A DNA stretch of 32,000 bases from Candidatus Iainarchaeum sp. (GCA_028710695.1 JAQTTP010000001.1:120001-152000); one strand, 5' to 3'; shown: positions 4,237 to 13,671, counted from the first letter of the stretch. The notes: generated by a model not told the origin, from the sequence alone. Program-made: numbers and translations.

Positions 4237-5187
4237 CTATTCAAATACACACTCCGGTGGGCTTATTGGAACGTATTCTTTCTGAAATAAGTCAATTTGA
4301 ACTATTTTAAGATCTTTAAATAGTCCAATTATTTCTTGAATTTTTTTTCTTAGATCATATGGGCTATCAACAAAAAGACCAAATTCTAAAAATGGGTCTC
4401 CAATATATTCGCCAACATAAGAAACGTCCTTCCTAAACTCTAAATGGTTGATGAGCTTCTCTTTAGTTAATTTATCATCATTAGTAATAAAAATTTCATA
4501 TTGGTAAAAATTTAATTTAAATACATCAACAAAGAGATAATATTTAATGATATAATTGCTATTTTCTAATTTTTTAATTCTTTTGCTAACTGCTTGTGGC
4601 GTTATTGGCGTTTTCTTGGATAAACTGACTAAATCTATCCTGGAATTTTTTGCTAATTCTTTTAATATTGTTTTATCAATATCATCAATATCAATGCTTT
4701 CTTCTTTTTTTATTTTGTTAATTTTTATATTTGTATTTGTATCAAAGTATTTTTCATAAAAATATCTTGTTCTTTTGTGTAATGTAAATCTATGATTTGT
4801 TATCTGGTCTTTGAATCGCAGATATAATGTTTGGAATTTATTATCTATGTCTTCTGGATCTTTTCCAATAATAGAAAATCCAAAATTCCAGGTTCCTGAT
4901 AGTTCCACAGCCCAAGAGATATAATTTGAATTGGACAAAAATTCAATAAATTCATCTTGTTTTTCCTCTTCTATATTAAGATATATGGATGCGGCAATAT
5001 ACCCTAATTTTTTATAATTTATTTCTGTTGTAAAATTAATTATTACTCCTTCTCTGATTAGCCGGCTTATCCTATAATTAACAACTTCTCTTGAGACTTT
5101 AATTTGTTTAGCAAGTGTTTTATAAGGTATTCTCGAATTCATCATCAACTTTGCTAAAATAAGTTTATCTATTCGGTCCATACACAT
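4237..5187 (-). CDS. Lrp/AsnC-family regulator with two tandem HTH+effector modules
   Basis: Two HTH_AsnC-like segments (DRIDKLILAKLMMNSRIPYKTLAKQIKVSREVVNYRISRLIREGVI and DDIDKTILKELAKNSRIDLVSLSKKTPITPQAVSKRIKKLENSNYI). Each is followed by about 100 aa resembling a RAM domain. Confidence 0.8.
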   Translation of the reverse strand: MCMDRIDKLILAKLMMNSRIPYKTLAKQIKVSREVVNYRISRLIREGVIINFTTEINYKKLGYIAASIYLNIEEEKQDEFIEFLSNSNYISWAVELSGTWNFGFSIIGKDPEDIDNKFQTLYLRFKDQITNHRFTLHKRTRYFYEKYFDTNTNIKINKIKKEESIDIDDIDKTILKELAKNSRIDLVSLSKKTPITPQAVSKRIKKLENSNYIIKYYLFVDVFKLNFYQYEIFITNDDKLTKEKLINHLEFRKDVSYVGEYIGDPFLEFGLFVDSPYDLRKKIQEIIGLFKDLKIVQIDLFQKEYVPISPPECVFE

Positions 5188-6148: not shown

Positions 6149-6254
6149 AAATATACTCTTATTTGTGAGAAAAGTATAAAAAGGTATTCCTTTGGCCCCT
6201 AAATGAATATATTCTAGTTTGTGCTCTTTGTAATATGCCTTTTTGGTGAGCTTT

Positions 6255-8027
6255 ATGACTAGAAAGATGTATTTTGTGTTTATCCTGCTATTTTTCATTT
6301 TATTTGCTACTTTTGCCTTTGCTAAAAGTTATACTCTGCCAAAGGCAGAGATTTACATGAAAATAAACCCTGATGCAAGTATAGATGTTACTGAAAAAAT
6401 CCAGTTTAACTTTTCCGGATCATATACTTATGCATATAGAGACATCCCTAAAGGAGATTGGGAGTTAAGTAATATTTCTGTAAAAGAGAATGGCAAAGAG
6501 CTTGATTTTGATATTATTGATGGTTCTAGTAATACACAAATAAAGTGGTATTATTCTGCAGAAAATGAATCTAAAACTTTTGAAATAAATTATACTTTAA
6601 AGAATGCCTTAACTGTATATGATGATGTTGCAGAATTATATTGGAAGGTTTGGGGGAATAATTGGGCAGCCCCTCTTGGAGAACTTTATGGATACATAGA
6701 ACTTCCAAAAGATGTGCAAGATATTAATGATGTTTATGTATGGGGGCACCCAGAATTAAATGGAAAGATTGGATTATCTGAAAATAATAAGGTTTTGTTT
6801 CAAGTTTTCGGGATACATAGCAAACAGTTTGCAGAAATAAGAACCGCATTCCCAAAATCATATTTAGAAAAAACAGATTTTGCAATAATGAAATCAGGAT
6901 TGGGATTACAAAAGATTATAGATGAAGAAAATAGTTATACTTCTTTTACAAAACTACAAGCTACTCTGCTTATAATATTCATAATTATTCCAATTATTTT
7001 GTTTTTTGTTTTATGGTTCTTTTTTGGACGAGAACATAAAGTAGAACAAACCTCTATTTATGAAAGAGAAGTCCCCTATAATTATAGCCCAGCAATAGTG
7101 AAAGTGATATTACATCAAAATGCCGGGAGATTATCTCCTAATGATTTGGTTGGGGAATTATTTGATTTATGTTTAAAAGGAAACCTTAAACTAGAAAGAA
7201 TAAAAAAAGAAAAAGTTCTGGGAATTTTTGGAAAAGATGATTTTAAAATTCTCCTTCTTAATAGAGATAATAGCAAACTTTGTGAAAGTGAGAAATATTT
7301 GCTTTCCCTTTTAGAAGATGCTGCAGAGAATAAATATGAGGGTTTAGTTTTTAAGAAAAAAGTTAAAAACGGAACTCCAAATGAAGTTACATTAAAAGAA
7401 TTAGAAAAATTCCTGCAAGCTAATCCACATGAGGCCAGCAAATTCTTTTCTGAATGGAGAAAAAGAGTTAAAGAAGAAGTGGATAGTATGGGCTTACTTT
7501 CAAAGAGCCATAAAGCAGAATGGCTATATCTTGGATTGGTAGTTCTGAACATTATTATTGCATTTGCAGTGCTTGGTTCTTTTGCGATGACCACCATATT
7601 TGCTTCTTTAGTTGTGGCAGTAATTTTGTGGCTGGTATTCCCTGGTGCACTTCCTAATAGAACTCCAGAAGGTGCAAAGCACTATGATAAATGGATTAAA
7701 CTTAAGAAATTTTTGAAAGATTTTAGTAGCTTAAAAACCGTGCCTCCTGAATCTCTTGTGTTGTGGGAGAAATATTTAGTTTATGCAATTCCTTTAGGAG
7801 TTTCAAAAGAAGTTTCTAAAGCAATGGATTTTGCGTTTAAGGATTATTCTGGAAAACAGAAATCATCGCTGTTTGTTGGCTCATATGTTGGCTTAAGTAG
7901 TATTGGTGCGGGTACATTTGCAAATTCATTTAGTAGTGCATTCTCCACAGGCTTTAGCTCTGGTTCAGGGGGATTTGGCTCTGGGGGCGGAGGAGGAGGC
8001 GGCGGTGGTGGCGGTGGCGCCGGTTAA
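6255..8027 (+). CDS. DUF2207-family membrane protein with poly-glycine C-terminus
   Basis: Signal/anchor MTRKMYFVFILLFFILFATFAFA. The N-terminal domain SIDVTEKIQFNFSGSYTYAYRDIP resembles the DUF2207 signature. Several TM helices are present, and the tail ends in 12 consecutive Gly (7983-8018). The ATG at 6255 is preferred over the TTG at 6243. Confidence 0.8.
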   Translation: MTRKMYFVFILLFFILFATFAFAKSYTLPKAEIYMKINPDASIDVTEKIQFNFSGSYTYAYRDIPKGDWELSNISVKENGKELDFDIIDGSSNTQIKWYYSAENESKTFEINYTLKNALTVYDDVAELYWKVWGNNWAAPLGELYGYIELPKDVQDINDVYVWGHPELNGKIGLSENNKVLFQVFGIHSKQFAEIRTAFPKSYLEKTDFAIMKSGLGLQKIIDEENSYTSFTKLQATLLIIFIIIPIILFFVLWFFFGREHKVEQTSIYEREVPYNYSPAIVKVILHQNAGRLSPNDLVGELFDLCLKGNLKLERIKKEKVLGIFGKDDFKILLLNRDNSKLCESEKYLLSLLEDAAENKYEGLVFKKKVKNGTPNEVTLKELEKFLQANPHEASKFFSEWRKRVKEEVDSMGLLSKSHKAEWLYLGLVVLNIIIAFAVLGSFAMTTIFASLVVAVILWLVFPGALPNRTPEGAKHYDKWIKLKKFLKDFSSLKTVPPESLVLWEKYLVYAIPLGVSKEVSKAMDFAFKDYSGKQKSSLFVGSYVGLSSIGAGTFANSFSSAFSTGFSSGSGGFGSGGGGGGGGGGGGAG

Positions 8028-8045: not shown

Positions 8046-8807
8046 ATGCCAATAAGAAAAACTCATTTGGAAAGATTAAAAAAAGAGGGATATAACCCCC
8101 GTGAAATTCGAGCAATAGAGTTAGGAACATCTCAAAATACAGTAGCACAAGTAAAGCAGATACGTGATAGAATTAGGGAAGACCCAAAGCTTCTAAAAAG
8201 GTTTAGGGATTTGTCCGTAAAAAATCGAGAAGTATCCGAAGATCAATGGAGAAAAGACAGGTGCTTTTTAGATTATAATAATTTATTTAAACTAGTTCTT
8301 GATGAGCCGTTGTATGGTTTTTTAGTACGAATGGCCCAAGGAAAAAAGAAATTAAAAGTTTTAGACGAGGGCGCAGGATTTGGGCTGTTCTTATTAGACC
8401 TAAAAGAAATGCTTGAAAAAGAAGGAATAGACACAGATACAACTGCAGTAGTTCTTAAAAAACACAGTTTACTTGACACTTATCACAAAGATGGAAAAGT
8501 TGACCATGTTTATGTTGGACGTTCGGAATTCTTTTTACCAGATAGAAATTATGATGTAATATTTTCTCTATATGGCGGGATACATTATACTTTATCAGAA
8601 TTTAAAAAACAAATTCTGGTTAAATATGCTTCAGCACTGAATCGTGGCGGTGTTGCACTTATTGGTGCAGACTTGATAGGTATTAGAACACCGTTATTTG
8701 AACAAATGAAAATTGCATTTAGAAAAAGAGGATTTGAAATAAAACTATTTACTGGGGCAATACGCGGTGGACTCCCTACCGACATTTTGATGATCCGTAG
8801 ACTTTAA
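8046..8807 (+). CDS. class I SAM-dependent methyltransferase-like protein with N-terminal HTH-like segment
   Basis: Motif I-like VLDEGAGFGLF. The N-terminal REIRAIELGTSQNTVAQVKQIRDRI looks like an HTH. 18 nt downstream of the DUF2207 gene. Confidence 0.6.
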   Translation: MPIRKTHLERLKKEGYNPREIRAIELGTSQNTVAQVKQIRDRIREDPKLLKRFRDLSVKNREVSEDQWRKDRCFLDYNNLFKLVLDEPLYGFLVRMAQGKKKLKVLDEGAGFGLFLLDLKEMLEKEGIDTDTTAVVLKKHSLLDTYHKDGKVDHVYVGRSEFFLPDRNYDVIFSLYGGIHYTLSEFKKQILVKYASALNRGGVALIGADLIGIRTPLFEQMKIAFRKRGFEIKLFTGAIRGGLPTDILMIRRL

Positions 8808-10471
8808 ATTAGCGGATTATATGGTGGGAAATTTGTGTTTAAACTAGATTTTAGCTTCGCAATTTCATTATCGCACCAAACAAGCATTTTTTTATAATAT
8901 CCTTCAGTACTTGTATCTGTGTTTTGTGGGTTTGTTAATATTTCTAGTTGTAATTGAATTGTATCTACTAATACAGTATTATTTGCTTTTTTGGCCTGTT
9001 CTAAGCTTTCTAAAAGCTCTTTCTTCATTAGTTCTTTATTTTTTTTCATTGCGTCGGTTTCTTTTGGGGGCTCTATTTCATCAAGTTGCATTTGTGTTGC
9101 TGCAGCCATGTCAGCATCCCCCACCTGCTTGTAGTACTTTTGTTGTTCTAACAGCTCCGTCTTTCTGCTCTCCTTATCTTTTTTTGAAGCCTCACTCTCA
9201 ACTACTTTTTGTTTTGATTTTTTTTCTACAAGTTCTTTTAGTTTTTGTTCATATTCTTTTTTTGAATTTAAAATAGACTGATATTGATTAGCTGCTTGCT
9301 GGTTCTTTATTATTGCTCTTGCCCTTGGATCTATGCTATTTGCAGGATCTGAATAAATGCTATCCCCCTTGATAGTAATTTTGCTAGTTATAATAAAATC
9401 GGTAGGGGCATGACCTGGCATATTTGGATACCCAATTTTTCCACTATTATTATTTTTAATGGGGTTTGGTGTTCCAAAAATAGCTACAGAATTATCTCTA
9501 CAAAGTTCTAAATATGCGGAAATTTCATCACAAGCTTTTGATGACCTTTGGCCAACTTTGGCAATATACTTTGCAGCAATAGCAGCAGGCATTTTTGCAA
9601 TTAAGTTGTCTTGAATATTTTCCATCATTTTTGAAGATGGTAAAAACTCGAAATTAGGATATCCTGCAGGGAACTTTAAAAGGTTGTTTACATTTTTATT
9701 TCTGTCTAAAACTTTAATTTGGAATATTCCTTTGATTAATGAAACTGCAACAAAGTTATATTTAATAACTGTTGATGAACTATTTCTTTTAATAACATCT
9801 GGAACTTGAGATGGATCCATAAATGCTGGTTCTGGATGCTCTTCTTTTTTTGTTAAAATTAAACTAACTTCCGAATTTGGAAAAATAAAAATTTCTCTAT
9901 TATAATCGTCATTTGAAATAAAATCATTAATTGTGACGTAAGAATCGTTTCCAGTTTCTATTATATCTCCATTTTCTAAAACAAAAACAGAGTCGTTTGG
10001 GTTCATAAGCCTACTACCCATACCCATGCTTTCGCAAGGAGGAATAGAACTTTCTGGAAGAACTATTCTCTGTCCGCCACGTCTAACATACGCTTTGCCC
10101 ATGGCTTTAAAAGTAGGTGAAGATATGTGTGTATTTTTTGCTACTGTCAAAAATGAAAAATTATGTTTTTTCAGTAGTTCTATTTTTGTTTTGAATTTAT
10201 CATCATACTTGTATTCTACAGATATTCCATTAATAGACTTTGAAAATACTATCGGCGGATTGACTTTAAATTCGTCAGCAATCTTTTGGCATTCTTCTAT
10301 TTCTTCTAAATCTTTTCCTATTTGTCTGCCTTTTGCTTTAAATTCCTCTGTTTCTTTAGAATACGAGGTATCTGCTTTTATTTTTTTTATTGCATCTTCC
10401 TTCATTTTATTAATACGTGCAAAGAATTCTGCATCACTTTCCATTTTTGTACTTTTTTTATTGGTTACCAT
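8804..10471 (-). CDS. hypothetical protein (555 aa): beta-rich core paralogous to upstream gene, plus long C-terminal coiled coil
   Basis: Long ORF, 7 nt after the preceding gene. No TM segment or signal peptide. Residues ~388-515 are heptad-like and K/E/Q-rich. The core shares ordered motifs with the 402-aa neighbour. Confidence 0.8.
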   Translation of the reverse strand: MVTNKKSTKMESDAEFFARINKMKEDAIKKIKADTSYSKETEEFKAKGRQIGKDLEEIEECQKIADEFKVNPPIVFSKSINGISVEYKYDDKFKTKIELLKKHNFSFLTVAKNTHISSPTFKAMGKAYVRRGGQRIVLPESSIPPCESMGMGSRLMNPNDSVFVLENGDIIETGNDSYVTINDFISNDDYNREIFIFPNSEVSLILTKKEEHPEPAFMDPSQVPDVIKRNSSSTVIKYNFVAVSLIKGIFQIKVLDRNKNVNNLLKFPAGYPNFEFLPSSKMMENIQDNLIAKMPAAIAAKYIAKVGQRSSKACDEISAYLELCRDNSVAIFGTPNPIKNNNSGKIGYPNMPGHAPTDFIITSKITIKGDSIYSDPANSIDPRARAIIKNQQAANQYQSILNSKKEYEQKLKELVEKKSKQKVVESEASKKDKESRKTELLEQQKYYKQVGDADMAAATQMQLDEIEPPKETDAMKKNKELMKKELLESLEQAKKANNTVLVDTIQLQLEILTNPQNTDTSTEGYYKKMLVWCDNEIAKLKSSLNTNFPPYNPLI

Positions 10472-10478
10472 ATTTACA

Positions 10479-11687
10479 CTACCCTACTTTCACAGCACCA
10501 AATTTTTCTGTTAATGGTTTGTAAGTTCTCGGATTTTCTAAAATGTCATCATAGCTTTTTCCGTCAGAAGTTTTTGTAAGTTCTTTTGTCTTTGTTTTTA
10601 CTCCTGCCATACTGCCGGCAAAAGTTTTTGCAAATCTGTCAATGTTTTCATTACCCATGCCCTCTGTAAACCCCTTCATCATATTTAGACCTTTTTTCAT
10701 TTCTGCCATAAGACCTTTATCTTCCATCATTTTTAACATGTTTGGCAATTCTTTCATTTGTGCCATTATTTCAGGAGTAACTTCCGCCCCGCCTTGTTTC
10801 ATTAATCTAGTTAAATCATCTGGAGACATATTTTTCATCATTTCCATTGATCCTACTCCTTGTTCTAAATTGTTACCCAAATTTTTTATTTGATTAGCAT
10901 AATCAGTTGGATCAATAGTTGGTATTGAATTAGTTAGCATTTGATGAAATGTTGAAAGTAATGCCATTTGATTTTGGAATATATCATCCATGTTTGTCAA
11001 ACCCTTTCTATAAATTCCGTCTCTAGTTACAATTATTTCTTCAAAAGTGCTGGATTTTGCAGTGAATGTTTTTTTTGTCAGTTTATTCGTGTATTCTACT
11101 CCGCCCGCACCAATAGATGTTGATGCCGTTGGGGCACTATATACTGCGTTTTCAGATACATCAAAAAATCCATTGCCATCAAAATTAAATTTTATTAATG
11201 CAACAGGGGTTGTTAAAATATCTTCAGTATGGGAATAGCCTATTTGAAAAAAACCTTTTTTTAGTTCTACATTTTTTATTAGTTCTCCATGGTGCCTTTC
11301 TTTTGTTTTTGCATCTGTTTTGTCCCAACTTTCAAATCCAGATACTTGTAATTCACTATTTGGGCCCATAAAAATGCCTTTTGATGCTCTTGATTTGTAA
11401 TCATCAATTGGCTTGTCTTTACCTTTATTATAGCTAATGTCTATGTGAATTTTTGTTTTTGCACCAGAAATGATTGTATCCCCTTCCATAAGTTTTGGAT
11501 AATCTTTTCTAAACTTTTCAATTTTTTTATTATCTTTTGTTTTTTGGAATTCACTAATTAGATCAGTTTCCGTTTCTACAGGCGGAATATTAACTTTTTT
11601 TCCATCCTTTCTTTTTATAAATGCATTTGGGCCTGCAGCGCTCAAATCAATATGCCCTGTTTCAATATCAAAAAGCATTGCCATCAA
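10479..11687 (-). CDS. hypothetical protein (402 aa): beta-rich core plus Met-rich C-terminal module
   Basis: Long ORF, 13 nt after the zinc-ribbon gene. No TM segment or signal peptide. 15 Met occur in residues 281-344. The core is paralogous to the 555-aa protein. Confidence 0.8.
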   Translation of the reverse strand: MMAMLFDIETGHIDLSAAGPNAFIKRKDGKKVNIPPVETETDLISEFQKTKDNKKIEKFRKDYPKLMEGDTIISGAKTKIHIDISYNKGKDKPIDDYKSRASKGIFMGPNSELQVSGFESWDKTDAKTKERHHGELIKNVELKKGFFQIGYSHTEDILTTPVALIKFNFDGNGFFDVSENAVYSAPTASTSIGAGGVEYTNKLTKKTFTAKSSTFEEIIVTRDGIYRKGLTNMDDIFQNQMALLSTFHQMLTNSIPTIDPTDYANQIKNLGNNLEQGVGSMEMMKNMSPDDLTRLMKQGGAEVTPEIMAQMKELPNMLKMMEDKGLMAEMKKGLNMMKGFTEGMGNENIDRFAKTFAGSMAGVKTKTKELTKTSDGKSYDDILENPRTYKPLTEKFGAVKVG

Positions 11688-11700
11688 ATCACCAAAATAC

Positions 11701-12009
11701 TTACTTTAATTGACCACCACATTGTTTACAAAACTTTGTACCAACTGGATATTCAACATTACACTTTGCACAAACAACAATTAATCTATAACCGCAACCA
11801 GGACAAAACTTTGCGTCTGGTTCTAGCTTTATTTTACATTTCGGACATTTTTCTAATATTTTTGTTGCACTTTTGTCTCCCTTTATTTTGCTAATTCCCT
11901 TTTCTACACCACCAGTAATAGTATTTGTTGCTGCATCTGTTGCTCTATAAGTTAAATTATCTGCAGTTCTATTGAAAATTTTGTCTACAACACCATCAAA
12001 TAAACCCAT
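11701..12009 (-). CDS. double zinc-ribbon (DZR-like) small protein
   Basis: C-terminal CPKC-x13-CPGC followed by CAKC-x12-CKQC, giving two CxxC pairs per ribbon. N-terminus MGLFDGVVDKIF. SD AGGGTGA lies 6 nt upstream of the ATG. Confidence 0.8.
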   Translation of the reverse strand: MGLFDGVVDKIFNRTADNLTYRATDAATNTITGGVEKGISKIKGDKSATKILEKCPKCKIKLEPDAKFCPGCGYRLIVVCAKCNVEYPVGTKFCKQCGGQLK

Positions 12010-12015
12010 AAATAA

Positions 12016-12050
12016 TCACCCTAAGTTATATAAAATAAATAAGTATAAAA
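12016..12050 (-). promoter_or_regulatory. SD (AGGGTGA) and AT-rich TATA-like region for the three-gene operon
   Basis: The minus strand reads TTTTATACTTATTTATTTTATATAACTTAGGGTGA immediately upstream of the ATG at 12009. Confidence 0.35.
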
Positions 12051-12081: not shown

Positions 12082-12933
12082 TTAAATATTTCCTAAATAC
12101 ACGTACTTTAAATACTTTTTTCCAATTTTTTCTGCCTCTTTTAAACTTTGTAGTTCGGTAGGGCTTTTGTTAAGCATTTTGTACATTGGGAAAAATCTAG
12201 AAATATGCCAAGGAATGTTTTTGTCAACGCTCGCAATGAATTTTGCAATATTTTCCAATTCTTTCTTGGAATCATTTTCGCCAGGAATTAATAATGTAGT
12301 TAATTCAATGTGAATTCCTTTTTTGTGTACTCTTTTTATTGAATCCAAAACAGGCTTTAGTTTTGTTCCGGAATGTTTTAAATAAAAATCATTTGAAAAA
12401 GATTTCAAATCAATATTCATTGCATCTATGTAAGGAGCAATAAAATCTAAAGACTTTTTTGTAAAATATCCATTTGTAACCAGGATATTTTTTAGACCAT
12501 TTTTATGCGCAAGTTCTGCAACATCTTTTACAAATTCAATGAAGATTGTTGGCTCATTGTAAGTATATGAAATACTTTTGCATCCAGACTCTAAAGCAAG
12601 TTCAACAATCTTTTTAACAGTATATTTCTGCCCCATAATTGTTTTTTCTTGAGAGATATCTGCGTTTTGGCAAAATTTGCATTTAAAATTGCAGCCAACA
12701 GTTCCAAAAGAAAAAGTTTTTGTGTTTGGAAGAAAATGATACAATGGTTTCTTTTCAATTGGGTCTACATGCACAGCAACTGGCTTGCCATAAACAAGCA
12801 GGTAAAGTTTATTTTTTAGATTTTTCCTTACTCCACACAAACCAGTTTTTCCATCAGAAATTACACATTTGTTTGCACAAGCAAGACATTGTACTTTGCC
12901 TTTGTAAGGCTTGTAAAGAATACATTCTTTCAT
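12082..12933 (-). CDS. AmmeMemoRadiSam system radical SAM enzyme
   Basis: Radical-SAM cluster motif GCNFKCKFCQN. An N-terminal Cys-rich segment (VQCLACANKCVISDGKTGLCGVRKN) is typical of this subfamily. It is divergently paired with a Memo-like gene. Confidence 0.85.
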   Translation of the reverse strand: MKECILYKPYKGKVQCLACANKCVISDGKTGLCGVRKNLKNKLYLLVYGKPVAVHVDPIEKKPLYHFLPNTKTFSFGTVGCNFKCKFCQNADISQEKTIMGQKYTVKKIVELALESGCKSISYTYNEPTIFIEFVKDVAELAHKNGLKNILVTNGYFTKKSLDFIAPYIDAMNIDLKSFSNDFYLKHSGTKLKPVLDSIKRVHKKGIHIELTTLLIPGENDSKKELENIAKFIASVDKNIPWHISRFFPMYKMLNKSPTELQSLKEAEKIGKKYLKYVYLGNI

Positions 12934-12966: not shown

Positions 12967-13671
12967 ATGGTTGTAGAATGGTATCCAGCAAGTAGGGCAG
13001 AACTAAACTTTATGTTAGAAGAATATCTAAATAACAAAGTGAAAGCAACAAAAAATATTCACGGACTTATTGTTCCGCACGCAGGTTATGAATTTTCTGG
13101 TGCTATTGCGGGGAAAGCATATTCTTTGTTAAAAGGAAAGAAATACGATAAAGTAATTATTCTTGGGCCCTCTCATTACAAGGGCTTTAAAGGAATCAAA
13201 GCCTTAAAAGAAATTATAACACCATTTGGAAAAGCGAAAATTACAAAAAATGATTATGAAAAATTAGATTATGAACATTCAATTCAAAACCAATTTCCCT
13301 TTATTCAAAAAATCTTGCCAAAAGCAGAAATACTACCATTAGTTGTAGGCCAAATAACCTTGAAAGAAGCAGAAGAATATGCAAAGAAGCTAATAACCCC
13401 AAACACATTATTTATCATATCTACTGACCTGAGCCATTTTTTGCCCTATGCGATTGCAGAAACAGCAGATAAGAAGACGATAAACATAATAGCAACACTA
13501 GACTTCGACAGCTTACAAGACTTAGATGCCTGCGGGATATTTCCTTTGCTTATTGGCATGAAAATATGTGAATTGAGGGGCTATAAGCCAAAGCTTGCGG
13601 AATACAAGAATTCAGGGGATGTTACTGGGGATAAGAATTCTGTTGTTGGATATGCTTCTTTCTGGTTCTAA
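12967..13671 (+). CDS. AmmeMemoRadiSam system protein B (Memo-like)
   Basis: Memo signature GLIVPHAGYEFSGAIAGKAY, plus GPSH and DLSHF metal-site-like motifs. Confidence 0.85.
   Translation: MVVEWYPASRAELNFMLEEYLNNKVKATKNIHGLIVPHAGYEFSGAIAGKAYSLLKGKKYDKVIILGPSHYKGFKGIKALKEIITPFGKAKITKNDYEKLDYEHSIQNQFPFIQKILPKAEILPLVVGQITLKEAEEYAKKLITPNTLFIISTDLSHFLPYAIAETADKKTINIIATLDFDSLQDLDACGIFPLLIGMKICELRGYKPKLAEYKNSGDVTGDKNSVVGYASFWF

Follow-up and report, generated by a model that had tools for sequence, protein, structure and literature searches.

The stretch analyzed here, hereafter the window, is a 32,000-nucleotide (nt) segment of JAQTTP010000001.1 (positions 120001-152000) from a DPANN (Diapherotrites, Parvarchaeota, Aenigmarchaeota, Nanoarchaeota, Nanohaloarchaeota) archaeon of low guanine-cytosine (GC) content (about 0.32), Ca. 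Ainarchaeum (Micrarchaeota). Three adjacent genes on its minus strand, which we call A, B, and C, form a rare module that is kept together in archaea and bacteria and may encode the subunits of a single complex. Gene A (11701..12009) encodes 102 amino acids (aa) from an ATG start, a conserved N-terminal segment (residues 1-50) being followed by a double zinc ribbon (residues 54-100). Gene B (10479..11687) encodes 401-402 aa, in which a beta head precedes a helical tail rich in Met and the C-terminal peptide is conserved, while gene C (8804..10471; 555 aa, ATG start) encodes a helical hairpin, a beta head, helices, and a conserved C-terminus. The B and C proteins are identical to the hypothetical proteins PHH82_00695 and PHH82_00690, respectively, of a Candidatus Ainarchaeum sp. 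metagenome-assembled genome. As each of the three proteins has dozens of homologues at E<1e-60, these genes are not chance open reading frames (ORFs).

An initial annotation, made from the sequence of the window, had proposed these same three ORFs separated by gaps of 13 and 7 nt. All three are indeed present, and the 7-nt gap between B and C stands, but the gap between A and B is less firm, since it ranges from 13 to 22 nt depending on the start codon of B. The candidates are a TTG at 11687 (402 aa), an ATG at 11684 (the NCBI call, 401 aa), and an ATG at 11678. Considering the GGTGA motif at 11693-11689, 5' of B, and the N-terminal consensus of the family (M-x-FDIETG), one of the ATGs is the more likely start, and the TTG is probably not the true one. 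Upstream of A, the two signals previously described can both be read directly: a Shine-Dalgarno-like AGGGTGA (12016..12022, minus strand) 6 nt before the ATG, and a region of AT-rich, TATA-like strings (12026..12050, minus strand) that is a candidate archaeal promoter of A, with TTTTATATAA at 12035-12026 and TTTTATAC at 12050-12043, 17-41 nt from the ATG. Scanning the region for sigma-70 promoters and terminators gave site counts equal to those of shuffled sequences, a result that is uninformative for an archaeon. No transmembrane segment was found in A, B, or C (maximal Kyte-Doolittle means over 19 residues of 0.97, 0.82, and 1.25), as had been claimed, and no signal peptide in B or C. The GC content of the three genes (0.32-0.33) fits that of the whole window (0.27-0.37). 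The composition is therefore host-like, as noted initially, but this does not make the module part of the core genome, given the rare and patchy spread described below.

We looked for relatives of B and C in sequence collections. B has 58 homologues, all at E<1e-79, and C has 30, which lie on the same contigs as B. Neither protein matched Pfam or NCBIfam at E<=1, PHROGs gave no meaningful match, and PADLOC-DB gave none. Pfam scans of individual members (35 of the B family and 29 of the C family) returned scattered noise only (DotZ, DUF3106, FapA, spectrin). The sequences of the PDB, compared with the B and C profiles and with the B tail by itself, contained nothing significant, the best matches being TlpA (E 0.005) and the FAK FAT domain (E 0.058). 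Overall, no match to a catalytic or nucleotide-binding family was found in four libraries of hidden Markov models (HMMs) or in the PDB. A literature search on the family, or on expression data in cultivated Micrarchaeota, turned up no work that can be connected with these proteins. The earlier statement that B and C fit no known family is thus upheld by these searches.

We also compared B and C with each other. A BLASTP comparison was not significant (E 0.078), but profile-profile comparison aligned residues 10-154 of B with residues 116-257 of C at 97% probability (E 7.7e-11), and a local repetition with hhalign gave E 6.5e-11 against 0.075 for the reversed-sequence control. The homologous segments, about 100-130 residues long, correspond to residues 21-151 of B (11235..11627, minus strand) and 126-254 of C (9710..10096, minus strand), and share the motifs L-x-(D/N)GD-x-I, PNSE, and (V/I)-x-L-x-KG-x-F. 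Judged from these profiles, B and C are paralogues over their beta segment, in agreement with what had been proposed. A collinear alignment of the two tails was not significant (E 0.007, probability 5%). Within the head of B, ten polar residues are invariant (R26, D70, S111, E112, E119, W121, D122, R131, K211, and E217); few of these positions, namely the Asp of GD and the Ser of PNSE, are invariant also in C.

AlphaFold2 models of B and C were built with the family alignments. Results showed a well-defined model for B, with a mean predicted local distance difference test (pLDDT) score of 89.9 and a predicted template modelling (pTM) score of 0.82, in which residues 6-228 are all beta and residues 235-384 form helices, one of them 45 residues long. 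Together with the Foldseek comparisons, these strands delimit a beta head (residues 1-232; 10992..11687, minus strand), and the helices, the Met content, and the C-terminal alignment delimit a helical tail (residues 233-402; 10482..10991, minus strand). Since a terminal strand at residues 398-400 is predicted at pLDDT>90, the conserved C-terminal peptide of B would dock back on the head. In the model of C (pLDDT 83.8, pTM 0.69), a helical hairpin at the N-terminus (residues 13-70) is followed by a beta region (74-374) and then by six helices (382-544). Foldseek found no relative of either model in the PDB (best E 0.013 for B and 0.24 for C, TM-score<0.2); the matches to colicin, Rad50/SMC, kelch, the DnaK substrate-binding domain, and CdvA were discarded as noise at this TM-score. 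In BFVD, however, the head of B matched two phage models that carry the name "FecR protein", at E 4.4e-6 and probability 1.0 (219-235 columns, TM-score 0.29-0.35). These models are the only lead on the fold of the B head, which may be FecR-like. The beta core had been considered unplaceable, and this holds for sequences and for PDB structures, but not for the predicted phage structures.

The tails of the two paralogues differ. Across the family, the last 170 residues of B contain on average 10.8% Met (range 7.6%-14.1%) against 2.2% in the head, so that the Met-rich tail reported for the protein of the window is a property of the whole family. The tail of C contains 3.7% Met, is rich in Lys, Glu, Leu, and Gln, and carries large indels. 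The divergence of the helical tails is therefore as first described, but the tail of C, rather than a demonstrated coiled coil, consists of several helices that vary in length. The C-terminus of B is (E/S)PRxYKPLT...(A/G)VKV(A/G), or LPxYPPL...K(I/V)(A/G) in divergent members, and C ends in (F/L)PxYNxPxxxDx(V/I); therefore, both paralogues bear a related terminal peptide of the P-x-Y-x-P(L) type. The HMMER search with the B profile also brought up two proteins of different architecture. P0117 (528 aa) combines a B-like head with an unrelated, unannotated C-terminal half, and P0118 (231 aa) is a tail-anchored protein with Met-rich "NMSPEDIxxM" repeats that matches the B tail only.

Protein A had been described as a generic double zinc ribbon (DZR), and it indeed belongs to Pfam family PF12773, which it matches at 42.6 bits (cut-off 27.3, E 6.8e-11) with four conserved Cys pairs. 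In the alignment of 22 orthologues, the pattern KCPKC..KFCPxCG..CxKC..GTKFCxQCG is invariant, including its eight Cys, and residues 1-50 are conserved and specific to the family. Searches of Pfam, NCBIfam, PHROGs, and PADLOC returned generic zinc-ribbon matches only (in PADLOC, only TniQ at E 0.1).

We asked how widely the three genes occur and whether they stay together. The HMMER search with the B profile, covering 1.84 billion representative proteins, retrieved 33 at E<=1e-3, and a scan of species genomes (one genome per species) found loci in 16 of 185,579, a lower bound for a scan seeded by two peptide patterns. HMMs for B, C, the zinc ribbon, and a NifU-like protein were mapped on all fetched loci (about 45, some of them redundant). 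Wherever the DNA of a locus reaches far enough, gene C comes directly after B on the same strand, and a zinc-ribbon gene belongs to the cluster in every intact locus. The conserved co-occurrence of the trio, the key check proposed with the initial annotation, is therefore borne out in every non-decayed locus, and the trio is kept even in the most divergent subfamily, in which the match of B to the profile drops to E 5e-6. Gene order is permuted. The layout zinc ribbon-B-C is found in the window and in other loci of Micrarchaeota type, including that of Ca. Fermentimicrarchaeum limneticum, whose genome is complete, whereas bacteria of the candidate phyla radiation (CPR) and other archaea have the layout NifU-like-B-C-zinc ribbon; variants include B-C-zinc ribbon and a divergently oriented zinc-ribbon gene.

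The NifU-like fourth component encodes 78-95 aa (L004 7761-7997, L005 5699-5986, L006 5743-5991, L001 4766-5005, and others). One Cys alone is conserved in it and CxxC is lacking, and with 14-15 bits against a cut-off of 27 (E ~0.03) it falls outside the NifU domain (PF01106); neither the window nor the other loci of zinc ribbon-B-C layout contain it. Where the module is most divergent (L026 8763-9050), a 95-aa gene for a beta barrel resembling domains 2/4 of EF-Tu stands between C and the zinc ribbon and replaces the NifU-like subunit. Two copies are decayed. One of them (L044 4053-5153) has a truncated or rearranged C, with a match confined to the first 215 positions of the profile, and lacks the zinc-ribbon gene, and in the other (L048 2683-3093) only a 136-aa N-terminal fragment of B is left. 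These copies suggest that the module is dispensable. No copy was found in phage, plasmid, and IMG/VR viral collections, and PHROGs gave no match. We also considered the module as a feature of the DPANN lineage, which was rejected: it is instead rare, patchy, relocating, and shared with CPR bacteria.

The CPR loci lie on contigs of up to 583 kb beside genes for peptide deformylase, Fmt, a Mur ligase, a penicillin-binding protein transpeptidase, and type IV pilus components. As these bacterial marker genes adjoin the module, the loci are truly bacterial. Identity of the CPR proteins to those of the window is 47%-49% for B, 43%-44% for A, and 33%-36% for C, and a midpoint-rooted neighbor-joining tree groups the CPR copies into one clade that is nested among the archaeal copies. 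This topology suggests, short of proof, a single transfer from archaea to CPR bacteria.

The genes around the module vary. All-versus-all clustering of neighboring ORFs revealed no recurrent gene beyond the module itself, the other recurrent "families" being antisense shadow ORFs. In the window, directly upstream of A on the same strand and 72 nt away, lies an AmmeMemoRadiSam radical SAM enzyme (12082-12933, minus strand; TIGR04337, E 7.8e-88), with the AmmeMemoRadiSam protein B/Memo divergent from it (12967-13671, plus strand; TIGR04336, E 8.9e-59); in other genomes, this pair does not accompany the trio. On the other side, a 253-aa methyltransferase-like ORF (8046-8807, plus strand) converges on C, overlapping its stop by 4 nt, and shows weak matches to PADLOC mad2 (2.4e-5) and Methyltransf_25 (1.2e-3); it is not conserved beside the module elsewhere. 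Further along the window are a DUF2207 membrane protein (6243-8027, plus strand; 594 aa, TTG start) whose Gly/Ser-rich tail contains about 14 consecutive Gly, and a 316-aa protein (4237-5187, minus strand) with two tandem winged-helix domains of AsnC/HTH_24 type, perhaps of siroheme-decarboxylase-like NirD/L architecture. At two CPR loci (L001 3356-3769; L004 81-1148), Fic-domain genes are found a few kb away from the module, and at another (L005 1-4325) its neighbor is a 3110-aa protein that combines Peptidase_C1, NosD, and beta-helix domains. In one locus from Micrarchaeia (L003 3024-11702), the module stands among genes for cation diffusion facilitator (CDF) efflux, an ArsR-type helix-turn-helix protein, glutaredoxin, NikR_C, and ZnuABC, a metal-homeostasis context that was not seen at other loci.

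Taken together, we favor the reading that A, B, and C are subunits of one cytoplasmic, probably non-enzymatic complex, a scaffold or adaptor of an undescribed family, a tentative view to which we give somewhat less than an even chance. A hetero-oligomer is proposed because synteny is strict despite the permuted gene order and because adjacent paralogue pairs usually pair through their homologous parts. The reading as a whole also draws on the paralogy of the heads, the confident head-and-tail models of B and C, the Met-rich tail and the C-terminal peptides kept within the family, the lack of a catalytic match and of transmembrane segments, and the spread across domains. B and C would pair through their homologous beta-sandwich heads, and the helical tails would form a stalk or bundle. 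The Met-rich helices of B might provide a pliable hydrophobic surface for a segment of a partner (e.g., the C-terminal peptides or the N-terminal segment of A) or for hydrophobic clients, the zinc ribbon A might act as an adaptor to a further partner, and small lineage-specific subunits (NifU-like or EF-Tu-domain-2-like) might plug in. The module would be accessory rather than housekeeping; its movement between DPANN archaea and CPR bacteria makes it probable that it serves something that these ultrasmall, host-dependent cells have in common. One may go further and see in it an unrecognized head-and-stalk cytoplasmic machine specific to such prokaryotes, in which paralogues of a new beta-sandwich/helical family are joined by a zinc-ribbon adaptor, passed from DPANN archaea to CPR bacteria for a shared need of their lifestyle, such as organization of the cell pole or of the site of host contact, or the handling of hydrophobic cargo that has been imported, although this extension appears rather doubtful to us.

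Several points weigh against the scaffold reading. The association of A, B, and C is deduced from their strict synteny, and a conflict system would be just as compatible as a scaffold with the rare and patchy occurrence. The invariant polar residues of the B head could mark a ligand-binding or catalytic site instead of an interface. The FecR-like fold call comes from two predicted phage structures at a TM-score of about 0.3, and neither the Foldseek search of the PDB nor sequence profiles support it. An amphipathic N-terminal helix in A was also considered and discarded, as its hydrophobic moment (0.16-0.43) was no better than that of shuffled sequences.

We therefore weighed other explanations. 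The rarity of the module, its relocation as a self-contained unit among unrelated neighbors, its transfer between domains, and its decayed copies would all suit an accessory conflict system, for anti-virus defense or toxin-like, with a sensor and an effector of new fold, and so would the Fic genes near two loci and the weakly mad2-like methyltransferase that converges on C in the window. However, A, B, and C have no PADLOC match, no nuclease, NADase, protease, pore former, or other effector can be recognized, and no transmembrane segment is present. Moreover, the flanks are housekeeping genes and not defense islands, B is unusually well conserved for a defense sensor (47%-60% identity across domains), and phage, plasmid, and viral collections lack the module, so that we consider a conflict system unlikely. 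Just as unlikely, to our mind, is that B and/or C are enzymes or small-ligand binders in which the invariant polar residues clustered in the beta head make up a new active site. The roughly ten invariant charged or polar residues in B, the GD and PNSE motifs conserved in both paralogues, and the fact that jelly-roll and cupin-type sandwiches often bind ligands speak for it; on the other hand, no enzyme family was matched by sequence or fold, few of the invariant polar positions of B (the GD Asp and PNSE Ser) are kept in C, and long helical tails with C-terminal peptides are atypical of metabolic enzymes.

The composition of the B tail bears on two further proposals. Its helices might shield hydrophobic segments of clients, as in the M domain of SRP54 or the grooves of Get3 or Sgt2, which would make B a holdase or targeting factor. 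The Met content kept across the family, the retrieval of the unrelated tail-anchored repeat protein P0118 by the tail profile, and an arrangement of head, helical lid, and conserved C-terminal peptide that recalls Hsp70 substrate-binding domains are in line with this idea, but no Pfam match to SRP_SPB, STI1, or Hsp70 was found, the Foldseek matches to the DnaK substrate-binding domain are noise (E 0.35-0.9, TM-score<0.17), and the module has no ATPase partner; we regard it as quite improbable. The same Met residues, as Cu(I)/Ag(I)-type sites, could act with the eight invariant Cys of A and the NifU-like accessory subunit in a metal-handling module, and the locus among CDF, ArsR, NikR, and ZnuABC genes would agree. 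This is very unlikely, considering that such a context occurs at one locus only, that the NifU-like protein lacks CxxC and scores below the Pfam cut-off, that B has no Cys and few His, and that Met-only metal sites are typical of extracytoplasmic proteins, while the trio carries no export signal. Finally, FecR domains are normally extracytoplasmic, and the similarity of the B head to FecR-labelled models could mean that the proteins are exported by an unrecognized route and associated with the surface. We consider this highly improbable: signal peptides, transmembrane segments, and conserved secretion genes nearby are all missing, zinc ribbons are cytoplasmic modules, and FecR membership fails by sequence.

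The scaffold reading, like its alternatives, concerns a part of biology in which most conserved genes are without known function, as DPANN archaea and CPR bacteria account for a large share of microbial diversity and orphan operons of this sort are common in their genomes. In this case, B and C have high-confidence models of a fold without a solved relative, and the module is intact across two domains at about 50% identity, yet present in a small minority of genomes. Linkage, cross-domain retention, and rarity together point to a discrete, transferable function tied to ultrasmall, host-dependent life. If the module turns out to act as a scaffold, chaperone, or conflict system of a new kind, it would add a family of proteins and a clear example of transfer from archaea to bacteria, and with three small soluble proteins, it is a compact target for structural and interaction work.

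When compared with known systems, the module falls outside the known kinds, on the grounds that no fit was found rather than by demonstration of a new mechanism. It corresponds to no known anti-phage system in PADLOC-DB, and the collections of phages and plasmids show it as neither phage- nor plasmid-borne. Among named entities, the FecR domain (PF04773), which is the beta-sandwich in anti-sigma factors of the FecR/PupR type, comes closest, and this by predicted fold only: the head of B, of about 230 residues, superposes on the two predicted phage models, whereas comparisons by sequence and context all failed. The motifs L-x-DGD-x-I, PNSE-L-x-V, and V-x-L-x-KG-x-F of B and C resemble by eye what we take to be the FecR consensus, a lead and not a test. 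At E<=10, Pfam FecR matched no member of either family (35 of B and 29 of C), while E. coli FecR, as positive control, scored 63.4 bits. Likewise, hhalign of the B and C alignments against a FecR alignment gave probabilities of 0.2%-0.3%, the latter being shallow (13 sequences, >=67% identity) and limited to close enterobacterial FecR proteins; E. coli FecR alone against the B/C family was negative, and no FecR or PupR structure appeared among the PDB Foldseek matches of B. Unlike the FecR anti-sigma system, B and C have no anti-sigma N-domain (no DUF4880 match) and no transmembrane segment, and no extracytoplasmic function (ECF) sigma factor or TonB-dependent transducer lies near the module. 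B and C also differ from FecR proteins in being cytoplasmic and in their long helical tails.

Other likenesses are analogies. CdvA consists of a beta barrel, a helical region, and a C-terminal partner-binding peptide, the same order of elements as the beta head, helices, and short conserved C-terminal peptide found here; however, the Foldseek matches to CdvA filaments are noise (E 0.3, probability 0.1, TM-score 0.07-0.15), the module has no ESCRT-III or Vps4 partner, and CPR bacteria also carry it. Taking CdvA together with the Hsp70 substrate-binding domain, matches stayed at E 0.3-0.9 and TM-score<0.2, with no Pfam match. Functionally, the helices of B, with clustered Met conserved in composition, recall the Met-rich client-binding domains of SRP54 (M domain), Get3, and Sgt2/STI1, from which they differ by the lack of any sequence or fold match and of a GTPase or ATPase partner. 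At the level of sequence, A corresponds to the small DZR proteins, a generic module without assigned function, which it matches above threshold and with which it shares the four Cys knuckles; A is set apart from them by its conserved, family-specific N-terminal 50 residues and by its obligate genomic association with B and C.

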